This document shows, in pieces, positions 4,136-43,765 of a stretch of DNA of 64,000 nucleotides; positions within the stretch are counted from its first letter, which is position 1, and each line of letters starts with the position of its first letter. The notes beneath the pieces were generated by a model. It had not been told where the DNA came from and did not search any database. It saw only the letters and a program-made list of their open reading frames with translations. The DNA is taken from NCBI GenBank assembly GCA_000004985.1, contig GG738879.1; one strand, given 5' to 3'. Position numbers and translations under genes: made by a program. Source of the stretch: Naegleria gruberi (taxonomy: Eukaryota).

Positions 4136-5131
4136 ATGACCAACGTACAACAAGTCTTGCCAGTTTATCAACAATTCAAGGATGCCTTTGATAGGAATGA
4201 ATTGGAAAAGGCCGTGCAATTAGTGGCCCAATTAAAGGTTAGTATTTATAATAGAATGGAAGGAATATTCATGATTTTATGTTATTCTTGTGCTGATCAA
4301 TGTGTTTGGAATGATATTTTGATCATTTGATGGATGTTTAATAATGATGATAATTGCTCACAACATACAACATTGACCAATATTTACAACAAAATGAATA
4401 TTATTAATTCCATATAATAGAAACTCCTTGTTCAATTACCATCATTCCTTTCTATAACAGCTGGTTTACTCAATGACATTGTTCTCAACGAAGAAACAAC
4501 ACAAGAATTCCTTGTCATTAGAGAAGTTCTCGAACACGCTGTTATTTTAAGTGCCAAGACAAAAGATTTGGAATCATTTGAAAGAAATGTTAAACAAGTT
4601 AAAGCTTACTATGCCAATCAATTACCAGGAGTTCCAAAGAGTGCTCGTGAAGAATTAATTCTCGGATTGAATTTGTTGAGATTATTGGCACAAAATAGTA
4701 TTGCCGAATTTCATACTGAATTGGAATTAATCCCTATCGATCTTCACAAGAAGAGCATGTACATTAAGCACGCCATCCAAATGGAATTATTCTTGATGGA
4801 AGGTTCATATACAAAATTGAGAAGCCTCCGAGACAAGGCTCCTGCACCAGAATATAGCTTATTTATGGACTTGATGATTGATACCATCAGAAAGGAAATT
4901 GCCGATTGTACAGAACTCTCCTATGAAAGAATTAGTTTGTCTGGCTTGCAAAAACTCTTGCTCTTCCAAAATGAACAAGAAGCTAGAAATTTCTCCTCTT
5001 CCAGAATGTCTTGGTCGATTGAAAATGACGAAGTTGTATTTGAAAAGACTGCTGAAACAAAGAAGGATACCAGTAGAGATATCATTACCAGAACCCTTTT
5101 CTATGCAAAGGACATGGAAAGAATTGTATAA
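4136..5131 (+). CDS. RPN12: 26S proteasome regulatory (lid) subunit RPN12/PSMD8. Exons 4136..4237 and 4421..5131, intron 4238..4420.
   Basis: The spliced protein aligns along its whole length with PSMD8 (…SFERNVKQVKAYY…LLAQNSIAEFHTELELIP…YIKH…LMEGSYTKL…DTIRKEIADC…). The donor is AAG|GTTAGT. The AATAG acceptor at 4420 keeps the frame, whereas the alternative AG at 4460 does not. Confidence 0.85.
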
Positions 5132-5282
5132 AATATTATAAGAACTATCTCTTTAGTAAATTAATGTAATGTCTTTGTAAAACATTTCTCATTTTAATAA
5201 TAATAAAATAATAAAAAATTATAATTTAGAATTTTCAATTATTTTAATTAAGATCAAAATATGTTTATTTTAACTATGTTAA

Positions 5283-6683
5283 TTACTTTGAAAAATAAGC
5301 GGCATTGTACAATTGATCATACTCCAGAACACATCCAGATTTTCGTTTCTTGGTCCAAGTTGCAGTGTCAAAGAAAAAGTAGGTTCCCTTTTCAGCTTTG
5401 GCATTTTGTTGGAAATCATTTACACTTTGATCTCTAATGAGCCACAATTGAGTTGGTTTGTGATATTTCCATCCTCTCTTTGACAGCTCTCTTGCAGCTA
5501 CAATTTGTAGCACATCACGTGGCATTGTGTAAAAGATATACAGCAGTGTTTCTTCTGTGAATTTGTCAACATGGAAGTCTTGTAACTGCACAGTAACCTT
5601 ATAACATTCTGGTAATTTGTAATCAGGTATAACATTTGATGGAGGAACCTCAGCAAAGGGAGAAGCAAAATTCTGATACAAAAACTCCGAAGCATTCAAG
5701 TTTAATCCTAGAGAGGTAAGATCCAATCCAAGAGCAAGAGCAGTCAAATCCGAATCTTTAGAAGCAAATGTATTGCTCAAACCTAACAGACCAAACTTAT
5801 CATCAGCAGTAGCAGTACGTTGTTGAATTGGTTGTTGTTGTTGTAAAGCTTGTTGTTGTTGAATTTGATAATACCTTTGTTCATATAGTAAAAACTCTTG
5901 TAAATGTTGTTCTATAGCGGAATTATCATAACCATTTTGTTGAGCAATATTTCTAACTTGTATCAGAGCTGCTTGTCTTTGTTGAGGATTAGCATTCAAA
6001 ACATTTCTGAAAATGTTATGTTGAGGGAGTGGAGGAAGTTTTTGGTTCATTGATGGATATTGACCGAATTGTTGTTGTCCATTAATCATTGACAAGATGG
6101 ATTCCGAAGGTCTATAGGAATCTCCTGTTGATGATGAAAGCAAATTTGATCCATTAGCGTTTGGTGTTGTCGATCTGTGAATCAATTGTTGTGTTGGAGA
6201 TACACTTGTTGGTGGATATTTGTTTGTATTACCAACATTTGATGATACATTGTTTTGATTTCCTTGATTTTGGAAAATACCTTGGTTATTCATTTGGTTA
6301 TTCATACCCGTTGATCCTCTAATGATATTATTATTAACTCCTTGTTGTGTACCTGTCATTGTATTCATGTTCATTCCACGGAAGGCATTACCATTTTGTC
6401 CCAAACCAGATGAAGCCATAAAACCCATTGGTGCTTGTTGATTTAAATTTCTACCCATCATATTATTTGCTCCAATAGAATTCATACCAACACCATTATT
6501 ATTTAATGATGACCCAAATTGTTGTTGTTGTCCTAATCCATTTTGGGTCAGTGCATTCAAATAACCATTCACTTGCATTGATGATCCTCCTGATGATGGT
6601 ACATTCATTAAATTATTAGTATTACCCAGGTTTTGATTTAATCCTTGAGAGGCAGAACTAGCATACGACGATGTATTTTTCAT
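5283..6683 (-). CDS. CCR4-NOT complex subunit 2/3/5 family protein (CNOT2-like). A long N/Q/G-rich low-complexity N-terminus precedes the C-terminal NOT2_3_5 domain.
   Basis: The C-terminal region (…LLYIFYTMPRDVLQIVAARELSKRGWKYHKPTQLWL…GTYFFFDTATW…VLEYDQLY) matches the conserved NOT-box of CNOT2/NOT3/NOT5. The first true ATG is MKNTSSY near 6683, and the track start further upstream is non-ATG. Confidence 0.75.
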   Translation of the reverse strand: MKNTSSYASSASQGLNQNLGNTNNLMNVPSSGGSSMQVNGYLNALTQNGLGQQQQFGSSLNNNGVGMNSIGANNMMGRNLNQQAPMGFMASSGLGQNGNAFRGMNMNTMTGTQQGVNNNIIRGSTGMNNQMNNQGIFQNQGNQNNVSSNVGNTNKYPPTSVSPTQQLIHRSTTPNANGSNLLSSSTGDSYRPSESILSMINGQQQFGQYPSMNQKLPPLPQHNIFRNVLNANPQQRQAALIQVRNIAQQNGYDNSAIEQHLQEFLLYEQRYYQIQQQQALQQQQPIQQRTATADDKFGLLGLSNTFASKDSDLTALALGLDLTSLGLNLNASEFLYQNFASPFAEVPPSNVIPDYKLPECYKVTVQLQDFHVDKFTEETLLYIFYTMPRDVLQIVAARELSKRGWKYHKPTQLWLIRDQSVNDFQQNAKAEKGTYFFFDTATWTKKRKSGCVLEYDQLYNAAYFSK

Positions 6684-6955
6684 TTTTTTTAAAATGTATT
6701 TTTTTAAAGTTATAAAAATGAAAAAAAGTAAAAATAGCAAGAAATATCGAGAAAATGATAAATTGTCAATTTACGAAAGAATTACTTGGTCGACTAACAA
6801 GAATTATTCACTAATGAGAGGGAAACATTGTCGAGTCTCTTTTTATTGCATTTAAATGGCACACTTCTCATTGAACTCACTTTCAAAATTTCAAATTATC
6901 AAAATTTGTGAATCTCACACATTGCTTTCAAAAAGGTGGAGCAAAATTTGGGTTT

Positions 6956-7483
6956 TTACCACTTCTTGTAGAGATCAACTCTTCTCTTGTGGTTTCTTCT
7001 CTTACCACCTCTTCTCTTATGATTCTTTCTGAACTTTTTACCATAGGTATCAATTCTCTTCTTGTGGAATCTTCTCTTACCATGTCTCTTACCGTGTCTC
7101 TTGTTCTTTCTGAACTTTTTACCATAGGTATCGATTCTCTTTCTCTTATAAATATCAATTCTCTTCTTGTTGTGTCTTCTCTTTCCGTATCTCTTACCAT
7201 GTCTTCTCTTATTAACTCTTTTACCATAAGTATCAAACTTCTTCTTGTAAATATCGACTCTTCTCTTCTTATGGTTACGTCTTCTCTTCTTTCCATAGGA
7301 ATCAATGTACTTGTGAGGTCTTCTCTTGTGGAGGTGTCTCTTCTTGTGCTTTCTTACTCTTGGAATATAGGTTGAGAGAGTGGAAACACTTTGAGTTTCT
7401 TCTTCACCACGAACATTTCTAATGGTGAGAGCGAGGATTGTCAATGTTAAGGCAATCAATAGAATGGAAACTATTCTTTTCAT
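6956..7483 (-). CDS. Secreted, extremely basic tandem-repeat protein (K/R/H-rich units such as IDTYGKKFRKNKRHGKRHGKRRFHKKR). Function unknown.
   Basis: ATG at 7483. The N-terminal signal peptide is MKRIVSILLIALTLTILALT, followed by a short acidic stretch and then about seven degenerate repeats built on (I/V/F)D(T/S/I/L)YGKK. The repeats are also visible at the DNA level. Confidence 0.55.
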   Translation of the reverse strand: MKRIVSILLIALTLTILALTIRNVRGEEETQSVSTLSTYIPRVRKHKKRHLHKRRPHKYIDSYGKKRRRNHKKRRVDIYKKKFDTYGKRVNKRRHGKRYGKRRHNKKRIDIYKRKRIDTYGKKFRKNKRHGKRHGKRRFHKKRIDTYGKKFRKNHKRRGGKRRNHKRRVDLYKKW

Positions 7484-32700: not shown

Positions 32701-33780
32701 TTATTCATCTTGTGCAATAAGTGAAATATCACAAAGCTTCGAATTGTTGGCTATTCTCCAAAGAACTGGTTTCCATTCTCTTCCACTTTCTCTCAAACAT
32801 TTAGAAATGAATGGAAACCTAGATTTCACTCCACTGAAAATCAAATCCTTAATCCCATTAACCTCCTCCTTATTTAGCAAATTAACAATGTGATACTCTG
32901 TTTCGTGTTCCTCAAAAAATTCACTCATCATTGAATTAATGACCATTCTTTCGTTTTCATTTGAGATTCGTTTCAATTCTTCCCTCATTTCATGATTCTT
33001 CAAATTTTCATAAACAACTCCTCGTTTCAGTTTTGATTGCAAAATATCTGGTTTGGTGAATAGGACTATTATTCTACAATTTGGATTAAACTTTTGAAAT
33101 CTTTTACAAGCAGTAACAGTATAATTGAACTTTCGTTTTTCATATTCTAATTCAGTGTAGGGATTATCAAAATCTGAAAGTCCATAAAAAAAGAATAGGA
33201 AATGGACATTGTCAAAACAGGCGAATACTTTCTTCCATTCATTTCTGGATCCTCCAATTTCTATCATTTTGTATTTAAAGGAGTGATCAATTATTGGATT
33301 CGAATATAAAAAATCATGAACAATAAAACCTGTAGTCCTTTGCGAAGCATAAATTAAAGGATTTTCCAAACGATTATCAAAATTTCCATTCAATAAGTGT
33401 TCCATAAATAAGGTTAAATTTTCAAGTCTCCAAACATTGAAATACTTTTCCAATAAGATTCGTCTCATTTCGTCATGTTTCCAAATCCGTGTAAGCATCT
33501 CCCTAGGTCTTGGAATTCTATCAAATTGATTCAAATTCTTCAATCTTGCAAATTCTTCATCCATTGAACAAAACTCATCAAAATCTTCCATTCGTGATAA
33601 CAGAACATTACAACAAGCATCAATTTGATTCTCATCACGAATTGTTTCATTGATGAGTTGTCTGCTGAATGTACTTGCTCCGGATCCGGGAAAGAGCCAA
33701 ATGTTTAGTTCTTGTGTTTTGGAAGAGGTTGAACTTTCGTCAAGTTTCTTCTCAGTGTTTCTGCTTTGCTTTGAACCCAT
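32701..33780 (-). CDS. Heterotrimeric G-protein alpha-subunit-like protein with degenerate nucleotide-binding motifs (putative pseudo-GTPase). It carries an N-terminal MGxxxS myristoylation consensus.
   Basis: It is collinear with Gα. The P-loop region is WLFPGSGASTFSRQL, where Gα has GAGESGKST. The helical-domain motif is RIWKHDEMR. Switch I is SQRTTGFIV. Switch II is EIGGSRNEWKKVFACF, where Gα has DVGGQRSERKKW with the catalytic Gln. The G4 motif is TKPD where Gα has NKxD. It begins MGSKQS. Confidence 0.65.
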   Translation of the reverse strand: MGSKQSRNTEKKLDESSTSSKTQELNIWLFPGSGASTFSRQLINETIRDENQIDACCNVLLSRMEDFDEFCSMDEEFARLKNLNQFDRIPRPREMLTRIWKHDEMRRILLEKYFNVWRLENLTLFMEHLLNGNFDNRLENPLIYASQRTTGFIVHDFLYSNPIIDHSFKYKMIEIGGSRNEWKKVFACFDNVHFLFFFYGLSDFDNPYTELEYEKRKFNYTVTACKRFQKFNPNCRIIVLFTKPDILQSKLKRGVVYENLKNHEMREELKRISNENERMVINSMMSEFFEEHETEYHIVNLLNKEEVNGIKDLIFSGVKSRFPFISKCLRESGREWKPVLWRIANNSKLCDISLIAQDE

Positions 33781-35269: not shown

Positions 35270-37069
35270 TTACTGAACTTTCCTTTGTTCCCCACCTCTC
35301 TTTATAATTTGATCAAGTTGGATTTGATGTTTCCAACATGGCATATAGTACAAGTGGTCAAAAAGTGGATTTACAGCGGCTGAATTTGATGTGGCAGGAG
35401 AAGATGGTGAACTGGATTGTAATTGTATGCTAGCTCTAGGTGTAAACATTCCATCGGTTGAATTGAAATTGGTTTTGGAATTTTCTCTCTTCTTCTTTAA
35501 TTGATACTTCCAGTTCTTTGAACATTTGTTAATTGGATATCCAATATCTTCTCTAGACAAAACATCTTCAGTTGATGTGACACTATCTGTATGTGTTTGA
35601 CCTGATGAAATATTTTTAAGTGAGAGCGATGATAATGAGCTGGCATTTCTCATCTCTTCCTCGAAAGCAATAGGATCCCATGTTAATAAATCAGGCTTCT
35701 TCTTTTTCATTGATTCCACAACAAAGTTATATTGTAAAACTTCTTGTGCACTCATGGTAATAATAGGTGTATCACAAGCACTTTGTTCATCAAACAATGG
35801 ATTGAATAAAAAGTTGGTATAGTAAATATCTGGCCCTTCCTTTTTGAGATCATCAATAGAAGAATTATCAAACATTGGATCCTCAGTTGCAACAGAAACG
35901 CTACCTCCATACCAAGTGGCGATTTCCAATGGACGAAGTGGTCTAATAACATCAGATCCTCTATCCATCTTTTTATCCATCATTAATTGTTCGGGTGTGA
36001 GTAATTTCAATCTGTTGCCCAAATCTTTAACAACACTCTTAACACCCTTTTGTTCTGGAATATCGTTCATACTCTTAGAAGCTTGATGTGGAGAACCAGT
36101 TGTTGCAGTAGTTCCTGTGTTTACAATAGTACTATGACTTTTGGCAGCCGTAACAAGTTTTGAACCGAATTCAGAGTTTGTTGAATTGATATTCTTATTC
36201 TCTGGTGTTGTTGTTGTTGTTGTACCATTGGTGGTGACTGCTGATGAGGTTGAAGTGGTTGTTGAAGTGTTAGTAGTAGTAATTGCATCACTAGTCTTTT
36301 CCTCTGGCTTATTAATACTTCTAACTCTACGTTTTGGAGTAGTTGGTGCTTCAGTGGTTGTTGGAGTAGTAGCTGTTGTTGTTGTTGTCGTATTCCTCTG
36401 TAACCATCTATCTGCAACATTAGTTCTTGGAGTAGTTGGAGTGTTAGTAGCAGTAGTACTTGTGGTAGTAGTGGTAGTAGTCGTAGTATTATTATTATTC
36501 ACTTCATTGCTTGATGTTGTTGAAGCTCCATTTGTGTTATTATTATTATTATTACTCGATATATTATTGTTATTAATAGTAGTAGAATTATTTTCATCTG
36601 GTGCAGTAGTAGTATTATTATTATTATCATTGGAAGGAGTTGATACAGGTACAGCAGCCTCGCCAACAGGACGTTTCACAATCACTCTCCTCACAACTAC
36701 CTTCTTGGCTCCTGTTGTTGTTGTTCCATTGGTGGTGGAGGTTGTCGAATTGGCACTCTCCGTTGATGAGGAGACATCGGGTGTATTATTGCTTTCTGTC
36801 GATGATGATGTTTGTTGTTGATCTACTGTAGAGGTAGAAGATGCGTTGTTGTTATCAAAAGTGGTGCCGTTGTGCGTTGTTGAGTTATTGTTGTTGGTGG
36901 TGGTAGTGGAAGCAGATTTTGATGAGAGCACACGAACAACACGAGAAGGACGGATTGGAGGTGAGGCAGTCGAGTTGTTGCCTCCAACAGTTGGAGAGTC
37001 GACAGAGTTGTTGTTGCCTCCTGTTGTTGTTACATTGCTCACCTTTCTGACAATGGTTGGAGTGGACAT
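35270..37069 (-). CDS. Large S/T/N-rich low-complexity (mucin-like or disordered) protein with a short globular C-terminal region.
   Basis: ATG at 37069. A 599-aa frame dominated by T, S and N runs. Codon periodicity is retained. The antisense plus-strand ORFs are V/L-rich artefacts. Confidence 0.5.
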   Translation of the reverse strand: MSTPTIVRKVSNVTTTGGNNNSVDSPTVGGNNSTASPPIRPSRVVRVLSSKSASTTTTNNNNSTTHNGTTFDNNNASSTSTVDQQQTSSSTESNNTPDVSSSTESANSTTSTTNGTTTTGAKKVVVRRVIVKRPVGEAAVPVSTPSNDNNNNTTTAPDENNSTTINNNNISSNNNNNNTNGASTTSSNEVNNNNTTTTTTTTTSTTATNTPTTPRTNVADRWLQRNTTTTTTATTPTTTEAPTTPKRRVRSINKPEEKTSDAITTTNTSTTTSTSSAVTTNGTTTTTTPENKNINSTNSEFGSKLVTAAKSHSTIVNTGTTATTGSPHQASKSMNDIPEQKGVKSVVKDLGNRLKLLTPEQLMMDKKMDRGSDVIRPLRPLEIATWYGGSVSVATEDPMFDNSSIDDLKKEGPDIYYTNFLFNPLFDEQSACDTPIITMSAQEVLQYNFVVESMKKKKPDLLTWDPIAFEEEMRNASSLSSLSLKNISSGQTHTDSVTSTEDVLSREDIGYPINKCSKNWKYQLKKKRENSKTNFNSTDGMFTPRASIQLQSSSPSSPATSNSAAVNPLFDHLYYMPCWKHQIQLDQIIKRGGEQRKVQ

Positions 37070-37762: not shown

Positions 37763-39300
37763 TTAAATTGAGGTACCAACAACATAACCCACTTTTTCAT
37801 CAATTGATTTAACTCTCACTCTGACTTCCTTGGTAAAGTTAGCACCCTTCAAGAGAGCAGTATTGACTGCATTGGATTCACTTGAGAAATCTTTTGGTCC
37901 ATAATTATTGGTTAAGGTGCCTTTTGGTAATAATCCCATGCTGACAAAACATGTGGCAACCAATTCGGAACAGAACAATTCTGATTCATCATTGGTTTCA
38001 TTGGATTTGAAAACAACACTGACCAATTGCTTACGAGAGGTTTCGTAAATGGCATCTCTAATCTTGATTAAGTGTTCATCCAATTCAGGGAATCTCTCCT
38101 CGTTTGATTCATCAATTGGTCTGATTGGATATTGTGGTAATTGTAATTGTCTGACAACGAGAATGTCATTGACAGAACCATTCATTACATTGTTGACCCA
38201 TTGTCTTAAACCCACCAATTGAGAACCACCACCAAGTTTTCCATCCAAATTAGAAGTGTCAGATTCGACAATGTAGACAGATTCTCTATCACTTGCAGCA
38301 TCAGTCCAGAGACCATACTTTTTGAGGACTTGTTCAGAAGGATTTCTCAACACGAAGGAAATGTGAGACCAAGTGGAGGCATAGGCTAATTGAATGGCCT
38401 TTGAGAAAGCTTCACGACCAGATGACAAGATAATATCACCTGTTCTAAGTTGGTCATATAATTCTTCCAAATAGACAACTCCAAAGAGTCTGTCTAATCT
38501 TTGAGATTCCTCAGTTGTAATGGTTCCAGTGGCAATTGACTTTAATGATCTACCACGATGATCAAATGAGGTAACAGTACCTCTCTCATCAGTGTAATCA
38601 TCGAGGAAATTTTCCAACTTGGCTTGTGGAATACCCAATGACTGTTCTCCTTCCTTAACAAAACCAGTCTTGATATTAAAATCTACAGCAGTGATACCAA
38701 CTTTGATGCTACCCTTTGGAACTCCTTGTAATTTCAATTCCATATCAAATGTATCTCCTTGAATCAAGTAGAGAACTGACAAGCTGACAGCTGCATAACC
38801 CATCTTTCTGTCTTTGAATGCTCTGTTGTGGTCATAGAGCTTGAAGATAACCAAGATCTCTTCAGCTGTAATATCATCAACAATAAATTCAAAAGTTTCA
38901 TTCCAAAGAGGATTGAGAGTATTTTCCAATCTAGTTGAAGTTTTTGTTTGCTTTTCAATGGTAATTTCACAATAAGGATCAGAGAGATCTAAATGAATTG
39001 TGAAAAATGTTAAACATATGAATTGTAGAATTATTAAATGAGATGTGAAATGTCATCATGATGAATATACTTACCAGTGCTAGACCATAAGGAAGTGTCA
39101 GCATTGATGAGATCCTTTCCTTCGTACAAATGAACTTTAACAGTAGAAGGTTTCACACAAGAAATGGTGTCATCTCTCTTGAAAACAGATTTGATTTGCT
39201 TGTTTGTGGAAATAATTTGGCTAGAAGAAGCAGCACCTTCTTCGATATTGGTAGTAGTAACAGCATCAACAACTGAAGTGGTATTTGGTTCAGCAGACAT
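37763..39300 (-). CDS. C2-domain protein fused to a C-terminal YiiX/YaeF-like permuted papain-fold amidase (Peptidase C92/DUF830-like) domain. Exons 39300..39075 and 38988..37763, intron 39074..38989.
   Basis: The C2 domain is split by the intron (…VKVHLYEGKDLINADTSLWSSTG|DLSDPYCEITIEK…NPLWNETFEFIVDD…). The C-terminal domain has the C92 landmarks RTGDIILSSGREAFSKAIQLAYASTWSHISFVL and FCSELVATCF, where E. coli YiiX has YCSELV. The donor CTG|GTAAGT and acceptor CATTTAG|AT are in frame. Confidence 0.7.
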
Positions 39301-39629
39301 CTTGTTTAAACAATTTTTTATATTGTAATAATAATTTAACTGTGAAAATAATGTTGATTTAAATGAAAGACATGTCACTGACATGTCATGTGAAACAAAA
39401 TAGACAGAAGGTGACTCTTTGGAAGCCAACTTGAAAAAATCCATTTCTGATTTAAAAACCACTTTTGATTTGAGTGGTTGACGTATTTCTCGTGGTATGG
39501 CTTTGTCCTACTTGATCAGTTAATGATAAGCTGAAGACAAGTGATGTATTACACTTATTAAACATTCGACAATCAGATTTTCTCATAGATTTTACGCGAC
39601 GGCAGGGTGAAAATCAACACACAAACAAA

Positions 39630-42002
39630 ATGAAAAGACTATCACCCCTTCTCTGTTTGGTGTTTGTTATTGTCTGGGTCAATTCAGCTCTTGCAAATAG
39701 TTCTTCTTCTTTCCTTTTATTCGAAACTAGCATGAATGTAAAGCAGCTTAATGCATTAAAATCGGATGTTGTTTCTCACGGTTATGATTATTTGACCATG
39801 TTCATATGGAAGAGCAGCATAAACAAGTTTGATTGGTCATCATCAGAAGAGCAATATAACTTTACTACTTTATACCAACATTCGGCTGATTTCTCCTACT
39901 TGGAGCAGAGATTATCAAACAATATGCTTGCTCAGGTGAAACGTGTGGTTTCGTCGACGAGGTCCAAATCACTCCAATCCGTGATCCCATTGGGAGTAAA
40001 ATCTCTGACACAATCGTCTTCAAGCTCCACCTTTTCCATTGGTATTGATTCTGCAGTTTCTGATGAATTTTCTAATTTTGCCTCTTTCAACAATGTTAGA
40101 GTTGATGCCAACTCTTTACTATTTTCAATGAATTTGCAAATGTGTAGATTAACAAATGTCTATGAAGATTATGATGTCATGATTACAACAATGAGTCAAT
40201 TTGTTAATAATATTAGGTATTATAGAGAGGGAAGTGGAAAGAAAAAGTCAGCTTCTGAATATATCAATACTAGTGACTTTTATATTGTACCACTTGTCCC
40301 ATTCTCAGTGGTGGTCAACTCTGATTCAATTCAATCGATAAGTGTTCATTCAGTTTCTAGTAATCCAATATCAGGAAGTGATCAACTTGAAAAATTGAAG
40401 AATTCTGGACAGGCCCTCTATGTCATTAATAATGAAAAGGAATGTTTCAGTAATCAACTTTATTTTGGAGATCAATCGGATAAGAATTCTTTATTGATGT
40501 TGACAAGAATGGGACAATTAACAAGTAGAGATCAATCTTATTTAAATACGAAATTTGGAAGTTCTATAATTTCATACAATACATCATTGTACAATTCTCT
40601 GATGGATACTTTACAAAAAGATTACAAAAATATTAGAAATGGATGGACTATGAACGAAACTATTTCATCACTTTTGACATCATCTTGTCATCCTTGTTCA
40701 ACAACCTATTGTATTACTTTTAATGATAATGATTATTGGATTATTCCTCATTTTGTCATTTGTATTTTATACTTTAGTTATTTGTTTTTATCAAGATATT
40801 TCAAGAGGCCTGCAATTTCTAGAAGATTACTCGTGCCAATAATTCCTTTCCTCGAATGTGTTATTTCTGAAATTGCTTTTATGAACTTTTGGGATCCAAT
40901 CTGTAATAGAATATTTTGGTACATTTGTATGTTTGTCAATTGCTTCTCTGCTCTTCTCTACGTTTTTACCTTTGTTAGATTTTACTATTTGAAGAATTTG
41001 CACTTTTTCATGACGAGGGTGCAGAAGGAATCTCACATCAAGTTATTGAAATATCTTGGAAGTGCTTCCTTTGGACTCTGGGTAACACCACTGGCCAGTT
41101 TTATCATTACTCTATTGTTGACAGCTCATGGTTTGCCAATGTTTGCAATTCCTACCTATTCTGTCCATGAGGAGAGTATAATTTTTTATGTGGTGGTCGT
41201 TTTGTGTGCTGGTGCTATTGTTCTAATTGTGGACGTTATTGTGAATAGAAAGTATATTAAGGCAAAGGGAATTAGAAGTTTTCTACTCTTTGATGATCCA
41301 TTTTACTTGAGAATTGATATGATAGCTGTGGTATGTGCCTTAGTTGCCATCATTGTCTATATTATACTCAAGTTGGCTGCCACAGATGCTTTATCACCAG
41401 CAGTTATTGGAATTCCAAGATTTGTTGCCAATGTTTTTGTAATTTTGTTCTGTGGAGGCAATGCCTTAATTGGTGAAACTTGGAAAGATATCAAATATAG
41501 AAAGCAAAATAAGGATTTGAATGAGAATGATGAAAACTTAAATCGTTCAGTACTTCTTCAAACATATTTACAAAATGCCGATTTTCATGAATTATTCAAA
41601 CATTATTGTGAAAAAGAATTTTCTGGTGAGAATATGAATCTTTTCGATGAATTGGAGAAATTGAGATCTAATGGAAATAAGGAACTCAAATTGGAAATAA
41701 TCGCCAGGATTGAAAGAGATTTCATTCATCCCCAATCCAGATACAGTGTCAATATTAGTGCTGAGGCAAATAATAATTTCTATGGACTACTCAAGACAGT
41801 GAAAAACAAAAATAGTGACAATGTCAGTGTCACCTCAGGAACCAGTAATGGAGATAGTGTTAAGGTTGAGCAAATGGTGAAAATTCTCTCTGACGACATT
41901 TCCACCAACATGTACGATACCTTTACAAGATTTTGCAGGAGTAACGAATATGTCAAGTGGAAACATGTTTACGATCTTCAAAAGGCACAGGACAGATTCT
42001 AA
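39630..42002 (+). CDS. Seven-transmembrane receptor with a C-terminal RGS domain (7TM-RGS, AtRGS1-like architecture) and a large N-terminal ectodomain with a signal peptide.
   Basis: Signal peptide MKRLSPLLCLVFVIVWVNSALA. An ectodomain of about 340 aa is followed by seven hydrophobic helices between roughly residues 370 and 610. The C-terminal RGS box is …FHELFKHYCEKEFSGENMNLFDELEKLR…IIARIERDFIHPQSRYSVNIS…MYDTFTRFCRSNEYVKW…. Confidence 0.75.
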   Translation: MKRLSPLLCLVFVIVWVNSALANSSSSFLLFETSMNVKQLNALKSDVVSHGYDYLTMFIWKSSINKFDWSSSEEQYNFTTLYQHSADFSYLEQRLSNNMLAQVKRVVSSTRSKSLQSVIPLGVKSLTQSSSSSTFSIGIDSAVSDEFSNFASFNNVRVDANSLLFSMNLQMCRLTNVYEDYDVMITTMSQFVNNIRYYREGSGKKKSASEYINTSDFYIVPLVPFSVVVNSDSIQSISVHSVSSNPISGSDQLEKLKNSGQALYVINNEKECFSNQLYFGDQSDKNSLLMLTRMGQLTSRDQSYLNTKFGSSIISYNTSLYNSLMDTLQKDYKNIRNGWTMNETISSLLTSSCHPCSTTYCITFNDNDYWIIPHFVICILYFSYLFLSRYFKRPAISRRLLVPIIPFLECVISEIAFMNFWDPICNRIFWYICMFVNCFSALLYVFTFVRFYYLKNLHFFMTRVQKESHIKLLKYLGSASFGLWVTPLASFIITLLLTAHGLPMFAIPTYSVHEESIIFYVVVVLCAGAIVLIVDVIVNRKYIKAKGIRSFLLFDDPFYLRIDMIAVVCALVAIIVYIILKLAATDALSPAVIGIPRFVANVFVILFCGGNALIGETWKDIKYRKQNKDLNENDENLNRSVLLQTYLQNADFHELFKHYCEKEFSGENMNLFDELEKLRSNGNKELKLEIIARIERDFIHPQSRYSVNISAEANNNFYGLLKTVKNKNSDNVSVTSGTSNGDSVKVEQMVKILSDDISTNMYDTFTRFCRSNEYVKWKHVYDLQKAQDRF

Positions 42003-42091
42003 ACAAATCGTACGTCCATAAGGATGTACTATTATTTAAATTATTATTTTTTAATAATATAATACTTTACAATTTTACAAGTTTGAAAAAA

Positions 42092-43765
42092 ATGTTTCAA
42101 GATGATCATCTTTATGATACGAAGGTGATCATTGAATTGGATTCCAATTATAAATCACATCATTTACAATTTAAATATTCACTCTTTAATGAAGCACTAA
42201 AGGTTAACCATCCGATATTGTCCCACACCTTCTTTGGTAATGATTTTATTTCGCACTCGAATGTTCAAAGGCTTTTATCTTCATCATCAGAGGATTGGAG
42301 GTACATTCCGAATGCCATGTCATCTAATAGGGAATTTGTTTTACAAACTGTTCAGATTTATCCAAATTCTCTCGAGTTTGCTTCTTCCGAAATGAAACAA
42401 GAGAAGCAAGTTATTTTGAAGGCCATTGAAACTGAGTGGAAAGAGAAGGAATCTCGTCCAAGAAGAGAATCTACAGAATTTACGTTATCGAGAATGAGTG
42501 AAAGTTTTCTGGTTCTTAGAATGGCAAGTCTTCTGCTACATAACGACAGAGAATTCTGTTTGGATGCGAACAAGTATTGTAATTATGTACTTTCTGTATT
42601 AGAAGTTAATAGAGATTTGGTATTGGATTGTGTGAAAACAAATGGAAAATCACTTGCAAGTGCTTCACATTTTGAAAAAACATACTTGATGGATTTGGAG
42701 ATAGTTACGGAAGCTCTCAAAGAAAACTTATCTGCATTGGAAAATGTTTTTCATGAATCGATTATTTACAGGGATGGATTTATTGATAAATTGAGGGAAA
42801 TTTACAAGTATAGGGAGTTGGAGAATCGAGAAAATTTACTGAATGCTGTTAGAGAAAATGGATTCTTCTTAATGTTGGCCAATGACGATCTCAAGAACGA
42901 TAGAGAAATTGTACTGGCTGCTGTTGAGCAAAATGGATGGTCCATTCGATTTGCAAACAAAAGATTCACAAAAGATAAGGAAATTATCAAAGTAGCACTG
43001 GATAATGATTGGAAGTCTCCTGTCATCTTTAGGGATTACAGAGCTTTTATGTATGTTGACAAATCAATTATGAGTGATAAGGAATTCATCCTCGAAATTC
43101 TTCCAAAACATTCAATTCTAGCATATGTGGATAAGGAACTGCTACAAGATAGATCTTTCGTTTTAAAAGCTGCCCAATCAAACCCACTTTCCTTCAAGTT
43201 CTTTCCGAAATATTTTCAAAACGATAGAGAAATATTTATTGCAGCGCTTAATCACCCTCCTCAAAAGACAACTTATTATAATCAAATTATATGTTCCCAC
43301 AGAGGAGATTCACTTGTTTCGAATGAAATATTGGGTATGGTTAATGATAAGTTTCGATCAGATAAGGAATTGGTATTGTGTGCTTTGAAATTATCTGGAT
43401 ATAACTTGAAATATGCTAGCGAGTCTCTAAAGGAAGATGTAGAAATTATTGATGCAGCTCTTTCTCATTCACCCTTGTCAATAATGTATGCCGGTGATTC
43501 AATTTGTGGAAATGAGGATTTTATTTTACAAATTGTTAAGAAATATGGAGTACTACCAAGAAACTCTGAATACGATAGGAGTTTTGCCCTTAAAGCTGTG
43601 TCTGTGAATGGTCTAGCATTGAAATATTTCAAGGTTTGGAAAACAGACAAGGAAGTAATCATTAAGGCAGTTCAACAAAATTACAAAGCAATAGAATTTT
43701 CTCCTAGGTTTTGGGAAGATCCAGATGTGATAAGAGAGGCATTGCGGAATTTCTATTCGAAATAA
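42092..43765 (+). CDS. DUF4116-repeat protein.
   Basis: The true ATG is at 42092. The track start at 41957 is non-ATG and overlaps the upstream gene. The protein consists of many ~30-aa repeats of the DUF4116 type (NDREIVLAAVEQNGWSIRFANKRFTKDKEIIKVALDND; SDKELVLCALKLSGYNLKYASESLKEDVEIIDAAL; KTDKEVIIKAVQQNYKAIEFSP…). Confidence 0.7.
   Translation: MFQDDHLYDTKVIIELDSNYKSHHLQFKYSLFNEALKVNHPILSHTFFGNDFISHSNVQRLLSSSSEDWRYIPNAMSSNREFVLQTVQIYPNSLEFASSEMKQEKQVILKAIETEWKEKESRPRRESTEFTLSRMSESFLVLRMASLLLHNDREFCLDANKYCNYVLSVLEVNRDLVLDCVKTNGKSLASASHFEKTYLMDLEIVTEALKENLSALENVFHESIIYRDGFIDKLREIYKYRELENRENLLNAVRENGFFLMLANDDLKNDREIVLAAVEQNGWSIRFANKRFTKDKEIIKVALDNDWKSPVIFRDYRAFMYVDKSIMSDKEFILEILPKHSILAYVDKELLQDRSFVLKAAQSNPLSFKFFPKYFQNDREIFIAALNHPPQKTTYYNQIICSHRGDSLVSNEILGMVNDKFRSDKELVLCALKLSGYNLKYASESLKEDVEIIDAALSHSPLSIMYAGDSICGNEDFILQIVKKYGVLPRNSEYDRSFALKAVSVNGLALKYFKVWKTDKEVIIKAVQQNYKAIEFSPRFWEDPDVIREALRNFYSK

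Follow-up and report, generated by a model that had tools for sequence, protein, structure and literature searches.

A Naegleria gruberi gene joining a C2 domain to a YiiX-type (Peptidase C92) permuted papain-like domain: a probable membrane-tethered acyl hydrolase or transferase with an incomplete calcium site

The window analysed here is a 64,000-nt stretch of Naegleria gruberi nuclear DNA (assembly GCA_000004985.1, contig GG738879.1). Its positions 37,763 to 39,300 carry a gene for a protein in which an N-terminal C2 domain is joined to a catalytic domain of the YiiX/YaeF type (Peptidase C92). Splicing of the window, together with the list of its open reading frames (ORFs), gave a minus-strand product of 483 amino acids (aa) that matches N. 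gruberi XP_002675257.1 (EFC42513.1, UniProt D2VKW2) with 100% identity from end to end, so the gene model equals the public one. The coordinates and the 86-nt intron within the C2 domain had been given in a preliminary description of the locus, and they are borne out by the ORF list, the splicing and the identity to XP_002675257.1. The parts of the gene and of its product are as follows.

39075..39300, minus strand: exon 1, 226 nt, with the ATG at 39300; residues 1-75 and the first base of codon 76, comprising the disordered N-terminal tail (about residues 1-47), the first C2 strand and loop 1.
38989..39074, minus strand: intron, 86 nt, GTAAGT...TTTAG, within C2 loop 1.
37763..38988, minus strand: exon 2, 1226 nt, with the stop codon TAA at 37765-37763; the remainder of the C2 domain, then the linker and all of the C92 domain.
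38675..39159 (intron included), minus strand: C2 domain, residues ~48-180.
38465..38674, minus strand: linker and helical N-terminal extension of the catalytic domain, residues 181-250; subfamily-specific, with the conserved pattern ...RGRSL.SI..G.I...ES.RLD.LFG...
37784..38464, minus strand: YiiX/YaeF-type (Peptidase C92) permuted papain-like catalytic core, residues 251-477.

The intron has a GC content of 23% compared with 38% for the coding sequence, and if it is retained the exon-1 frame terminates at 39034. Its removal yields a continuous C2 domain across the junction (...SSTD/LSDPYCEITI..., the slash marking the splice), which aligns with intron-independent paralogues. Both the second half of the C2 domain and the complete C92 domain lie in a single uninterrupted ORF of 388 codons (37763-38929); the fusion is therefore physical and no product of exon joining. 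The preliminary description had called the fusion novel, which the public record contradicts: the deposited entry already carries PF05708.19 and PF00168 in the precomputed Pfam list of the sequence collection, and Xu et al. 2011 (PMC3142127) stated that permuted NlpC/P60 enzymes occur fused to C2 domains. Thus neither the gene nor its pair of domains nor the occurrence of C2 fusions is new to the record; what we add is a structural confirmation, a survey of the architectures of the family and a degenerate Ca2+ site in the window paralogue.

Two in-frame ATGs, at 39444 and 39384 on the minus strand, lie upstream of the annotated start with no stop in between. They would add 28-48 residues and affect neither domain. 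The paralogues do not conserve this extension, and so the start annotated at 39300 is probably right.

We first consider the catalytic domain by sequence. The motif pair given for it in the preliminary description, TWSHI and FCSELV, is present. Pfam PF05708 matched the single sequence with 25.6 bits, below its gathering cut-off of 27, and only profile positions 1-63 of 166 were aligned, which makes this match marginal. The NCBIfam YiiX equivalog scored 24.8 against a threshold of 216, as expected of a model built for the Escherichia coli orthologue. On single-sequence evidence alone the C92 assignment is no more than suggestive. It is resolved by a profile (A2) made from the C-terminal domain of the window protein and seven relatives. 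This profile matched hundreds of ~200-aa bacterial PF05708 proteins with E values of 1e-33 to 1e-28 and 70-82% domain coverage, several of them named "YiiX/YebB-like NlpC/P60 family cysteine hydrolase". In the Protein Data Bank (PDB) it matched 3kw0 (Bacillus cereus BcPPNE; E 2.5e-14, with the His and Cys halves both aligned) and 2if6 (E. coli YiiX; E 1.5e-8), and no PDB entry beyond these two. Among 1.84 billion cluster representatives it gave 4926 matches at E <= 1e-3. These matches began at profile positions 6-12 in the 8 single-C2 N-terminal fusions near the top of the list, at 22-27 in two-C2 proteins and at ~35-45 in short proteins of ~200 aa. Homology to bona fide C92 members thus extends over both halves of the domain.

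Structure prediction led to the same family. An AlphaFold2 model of the full-length protein, built on a 123-sequence alignment, had a predicted local distance difference test (pLDDT) score of 84 and a predicted template modelling (pTM) score of 0.78; residues 1-43 were disordered (pLDDT below 50) and the linker at ~200-220 was of low confidence. A Foldseek search of this model against the PDB returned C2 matches only, so a separate model and search were made for the catalytic domain. The model of residues 210-483 reached a pLDDT of 91.5 and a pTM of 0.91, and its only significant Foldseek matches were 3kw0 and 2if6. The helices of the N-terminal extension were predicted at residues 224-229 and 234-244. 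In a structural comparison of the catalytic domain, 3kw0 scored 15.6 (root-mean-square deviation 2.9 Å over 169 residues) and 2if6 14.0 (2.5 Å over 137 residues), followed at a distance by the Euglena complex-I subunit NDUEG7 (7.6), TseH (6.4), MARTX RID (5.8), PLAAT4 (5.3), PPPDE2 (4.6) and CLN5 (4.4); NDUEG7 excepted, these distant matches are permuted papain-like enzymes. In the model, the fold of the domain is that of a permuted NlpC/P60 enzyme of the YiiX family, superposable on 2if6 and 3kw0.

Members of the family are defined by a Cys/His/Glu triad, a signature Tyr and a GD motif whose Asp is paired with an Arg (Xu et al. 2011, PMC3142127; also PMC10318531); the residues are C128/H49/E64/Y115 in YiiX and C154/H49/E64/Y127 in BcPPNE (Xu et al. 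2011, PMC3142127). We counted residue conservation at the corresponding positions over the 123 aligned homologues.

38363..38365, minus strand: His284, TWSH motif, predicted catalytic His; 122/123, the remaining one a gap.
38264..38266, minus strand: Glu317, YIVES, predicted third polar residue of the triad; 109 E, 11 H and 3 Q of 123.
38045..38047, minus strand: Tyr390, IYE, predicted NlpC/P60 signature Tyr (oxyanion / P1 carbonyl); 119 Y and 4 F of 123.
37970..37972, minus strand: Cys415, FCSELV, predicted catalytic nucleophile; 123/123.

His284 stands at the start of strand 284-290 and aligned with the 'SH' histidine of 3kw0 and 2if6, which is His49 in Xu et al. Glu317 lies on strand 313-319, adjacent to the His284 strand in the model; its equation with Glu64 of YiiX (VFEA, 15 residues after the His) is our own reading of the 2if6 sequence, beyond the printed profile alignment. 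Tyr390 aligned with the 'sgYdk' tyrosine of 3kw0, taken as Tyr127 of Xu et al., and Cys415 with the cysteine of 'iCSEfV', taken as Cys154. In the model Cys415 is placed at the N-terminus of helix 415-425, which agrees with the description of BcPPNE. The GD motif and its partner Arg were likewise conserved (G259 in 119/123, D260 in 121/123 and R355 in 122/123), and the order His284, Glu317, Tyr390, Cys415 is the circularly permuted one. All testable hallmarks of YiiX/C92 membership were therefore found except scores above the single-sequence Pfam and NCBIfam thresholds. With the family profile and the structure model taken together, the C92 identity is unambiguous, and the permuted papain fold and the predicted catalytic His...Cys pair put forward in the preliminary description stand. 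Of the two findings named there as contrary, a lack of matches to C92-type profiles does not hold, and the superposition on 3kw0 and 2if6 with conserved catalytic columns speaks indirectly against the other, catalytic residues that lie apart in a model.

We then surveyed the architectures in which this domain occurs, using Pfam scans and a local hidden Markov model survey. A C2 domain accompanied the C92 domain in 25 of the 264 fetched proteins; these 25 came from Heterolobosea, Amoebozoa and metagenome sequences. Named hosts are N. gruberi (three C2 copies), N. fowleri, N. lovaniensis, Willaertia magna, Pharyngomonas kirbyi, Thecamoeba quadrilineata and Pyxidicula operculata. The C2 domain was N-terminal, doubled or C-terminal (P0020, P0221, P0250). 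Other members of the same catalytic subfamily carry multi-pass transmembrane segments, for example N. gruberi D2W4G6, P0008, P0136, P0155 and P0157, and a Balamuthia protein (P0022) has a C-terminal transmembrane pair behind its C92 domain. One metagenome protein of 454 aa (P0138, JGI) combines a eukaryote-type C92 domain with two EF-hand pairs, which independently hints that Ca2+ controls the domain in some lineages, and another protein of 473 aa (P0237) joins C92 to a calcineurin-like metallophosphoesterase domain. A neighbour-joining tree of 256 C92 domains, computed without support values and used for grouping only, placed all named eukaryotic sequences in one group of 69 members, apart from six named bacterial sequences, and placed C2 fusions at more than one position.

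Two entries from this survey call for separate comment. MDP2435969.1, deposited as 'MAG: C2 domain-containing protein [archaeon]' (MAG, metagenome-assembled genome), is a 954-aa protein with two C2 domains and one C92 domain, encoded at 4571-7435 of the 12-kb contig JAUXWV010000469.1 (GCA_030685055.1, L001). The same contig encodes a leucine-rich repeat protein and VPS11, the latter split into two calls, which could reflect an intron. We rejected this entry as a prokaryotic C2-C92 protein, since the presence of VPS11 indicates that the contig is probably eukaryotic and misbinned in an archaeal MAG. No relative came out of a scan of GTDB genomes. The second entry, D2W4G6 (P0007, XP_002668777.1), is encoded on a 21.7-kb scaffold of N. 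gruberi. Its C92 domain differs from that of D2VPW6 (P0003) at 2 of 270 residues, and about five predicted transmembrane segments at its N-terminus replace the C2 domain. Either a domain was swapped very recently, or the entry is an artefact in the assembly or annotation of a region that is duplicated or allelic.

The C2 domain of the window protein is itself well defined. Pfam PF00168 matched residues 53-147 with 67.1 bits (gathering cut-off 22; E 1.8e-18). Of the two C2 motifs named in the preliminary description, NP-x-WNE-x-F is present as NPLWNETF, and G-x-SDPY actually reads T-D-L-SDPY. The AlphaFold2 model showed strands throughout residues 52-176 with pLDDT values mostly of 85-97, arranged as an eight-stranded β-sandwich, and Foldseek superposed it on the C2 domains of cPLA2, E-Syt and a Trichomonas vaginalis protein with target template modelling scores (TM-scores) of 0.8-0.87 and also matched that of CAR4. 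To locate the Ca2+ site, we aligned the domain with synaptotagmin-1 C2A and with the family. Loop 1 provides Asp68 and Asp79, and loop 3 provides Asp128, Asn130, Asp135 and Arg136. The canonical ligand positions are thus occupied by D68, D79, D128, N130 and R136, with Asp135 adjoining Arg136, so that three of the five Asp ligands are present instead of the five acidic ligands of Ca2+-dependent C2 domains of the synaptotagmin/cPLA2 type. Asn130 and Arg136 stand at the equivalents of D232 and D238 of synaptotagmin-1, whose ligands are D172, D178, D230, D232 and D238. Such a basic residue in place of a ligand is a typical mark of C2 domains that do without Ca2+. Loop 1 is moreover enlarged, longer than in the paralogues, and bears Trp72. 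Given Asn and Arg in place of two of the five ligands, membrane binding of the window copy is probably only weakly Ca2+-dependent or Ca2+-independent.

These observations bear on the reading that the protein is a strictly Ca2+-triggered enzyme, in which a rise of cytosolic Ca2+ would drive the C2 domain to the membrane, as in cPLA2, and so switch the hydrolase on. The resemblance to the Ca2+-dependent C2 domains of cPLA2, CAR4 and E-Syt speaks for it, as do the paralogues P0003-P0006 (two further N. gruberi copies and those of N. fowleri and Willaertia), which retain all five Asp ligands, and the EF-hand fusion P0138 in the same subfamily makes Ca2+ control plausible in some lineages. Against it stand Asn130 and Arg136 in the window copy and the C2-C92 proteins of Pharyngomonas and Thecamoeba, which have lost most of the ligands. 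With three of five ligands here and degenerate sites in some orthologous lineages, Ca2+ triggering is not a conserved property: it is plausible in some members and doubtful for the window copy. We consider a strictly Ca2+-triggered enzyme unlikely, and the term Ca2+-recruited in the preliminary description is not supported for this protein.

Taken together, the two domains suggest that the protein is probably tethered to the membrane and works as a cysteine acyl hydrolase or transferase on membrane lipids or lipidated proteins. In the mechanism that we propose, a cytosolic two-domain enzyme would dock on a phospholipid membrane through its N-terminal C2 β-sandwich. Cys415 would serve as the nucleophile, activated by His284, which Glu317 would orient, and Tyr390 would stabilise the acyl carbonyl. 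An acyl-thioester intermediate would form, and the fatty-acyl group would be hydrolysed or transferred from the membrane lipid or the lipidated protein. The gene structure, the two domain identities, the fold and the conservation of the signature residues are established by the analyses above; the membrane docking, the lipid-type substrate and the direction of the reaction are inferred. Indirect support for the proposal is of three kinds. In its crystal structure YiiX has a fatty acid next to the catalytic Cys, and cleavage of fatty-acyl amide bonds was proposed for it (Xu et al. 2011, PMC3142127). The characterised permuted relatives Tox-Act1, TseH, the PLAATs and RID are phospholipases or acyltransferases, as is LnsA, a component of the staphylococcal N-acylation system. 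Finally, membrane anchors recur on the catalytic domain. The lipid or protein amidase or acyltransferase envisaged in the preliminary description is accordingly a reasonable proposal that agrees with those in the literature, once its Ca2+ recruitment is set aside.

Several points weigh against an acyl hydrolase or transferase. We know of no member of the C92 family with a biochemically proven substrate, and literature searches on Peptidase_C92 and PF05708 returned classification papers only. The label 'lipid amidase' is based on adventitious ligands in two crystal structures. The juxtaposition of Cys415 and His284 would follow from the superposition and the positions of secondary structure in the model. 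A literature search by the accessions of the protein and its paralogues found no mention of them. The partial, sub-threshold Pfam match and the doubtful Ca2+ triggering described above belong on the same side.

A different possibility is that the protein is a membrane-recruited peptidase or isopeptidase acting on proteins, for example a PPPDE-like deubiquitinase or deSUMOylase, rather than on acyl-lipid bonds. PPPDE2 does appear among the distant structural matches. YiiX and BcPPNE, however, are the closest structures by a wide margin, and they have a hydrophobic S1 pocket and a bound fatty acid (Xu et al. 2011, PMC3142127). TseH, RID and PLAAT4, which are characterised permuted enzymes and closer to the window protein than PPPDE2 is, act on acyl groups, and no ubiquitin-binding features were seen in the window protein. 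We regard a peptidase or isopeptidase as improbable. A catalytically dead scaffold, or an annotation artefact joining separate genes, is hardly credible: nothing specific favours either beyond the weak Pfam C92 match, all catalytic and structural signature residues are retained, the same architecture recurs in independent genomes and transcriptomes of N. fowleri, N. lovaniensis, Willaertia, Pharyngomonas, Thecamoeba and Pyxidicula, and we rejected a gene-model artefact on the strength of the single ORF that runs through part of the C2 domain and all of C92.

The acyl hydrolase or transferase may have a wider meaning. The repeated joining of C92 to membrane- or Ca2+-binding modules gives circumstantial support to a membrane-lipid or lipidated-protein substrate. 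Tentatively, the eukaryote-type C92 branch, whose tethers are one or two C2 domains, EF-hands or multi-pass transmembrane segments and whose hosts are Heterolobosea and Amoebozoa, the pathogens N. fowleri and Balamuthia among them, might be an uncharacterised class of enzymes in amoeboid cells: phospholipase/acyltransferases or protein de-acylases that are regulated by membranes and by Ca2+ and converge in function with cPLA2 and PLAAT. If so, this branch could give the YiiX family its first defined substrate, and the window copy would be a paralogue whose membrane binding has moved towards independence of Ca2+. The eukaryotic fusions, including one from the brain-eating amoeba N. fowleri, are tractable proteins for substrate testing.

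Other genes were noted around the locus. On the plus strand, 329 bp from the ATG of the C2-C92 gene and divergent from it, a gene at 39630-42002 encodes a protein of 790 aa that begins with a signal-like segment, has a hydrophobic region judged multi-pass by eye and carries an RGS domain (Pfam 34 bits) at its C-terminus; it looks like a receptor-like RGS protein, as found in plants and some protists. A gene for a G-protein alpha subunit (32704-33780, minus strand) lies ~6 kb away on the other side. The immediate downstream neighbour is a 599-aa ORF (35270-37069, minus strand) with extremely Thr-, Asn- and Ser-rich homopolymer-like tracts and no Pfam match. Further along the plus strand, an ORF at 41957-43765 contains ten DUF4116 repeats (Pfam 264 bits). 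The mechanical ORF opens with a GTG inside the end of the RGS gene, which makes a true start further downstream probable.

The closest proteins for comparison are the paralogues and orthologues D2VPW6 and D2VPJ0 of N. gruberi, A0A6A5BJW3 of N. fowleri and KAL9643129.1 of Willaertia magna, which have the same architecture and catalytic residues and are 45-47% identical to the window protein over 87-91% of the length. The window copy differs from them in its longer, Trp-containing loop 1 and in the loss of two Ca2+-ligand Asp residues; it forms a separate paralogue lineage whose nearest relative is the environmental sequence P0002. E. coli YiiX (2if6) and B. cereus BcPPNE (3kw0), YaeF/YiiX-like proteins of PF05708 (MEROPS C92), share ~20-26% identity with it. 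They are stand-alone bacterial proteins of ~200 aa, whereas the amoebal protein is a presumably cytosolic eukaryotic C2 fusion with an extra helical N-terminal extension of ~40 residues, a segment inserted between the strands that bear His and Glu, and an extended C-terminus. cPLA2α resembles the window protein in that an N-terminal C2 domain brings a lipid-acyl hydrolase to the membrane, and the C2 domains superpose (6iej, target TM-score 0.81). Its catalytic domain, in contrast, is an unrelated serine-aspartate lipase fold, and its C2 domain is a proven Ca2+ sensor while that of the window protein has an incomplete ligand set. The likeness to PLAAT/HRASLS and LRAT (PF04970) lies in a permuted papain-like core, Cys-His acyl-thioester chemistry and action at membranes. 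We rejected membership of that family, since neither the Pfam scan nor the structural comparison placed the protein in it, and the analogy drawn in the preliminary description remains apt as an analogy: the PLAATs are tethered to the membrane by a C-terminal transmembrane helix, whereas in the window protein the C2 domain would serve as the tether.
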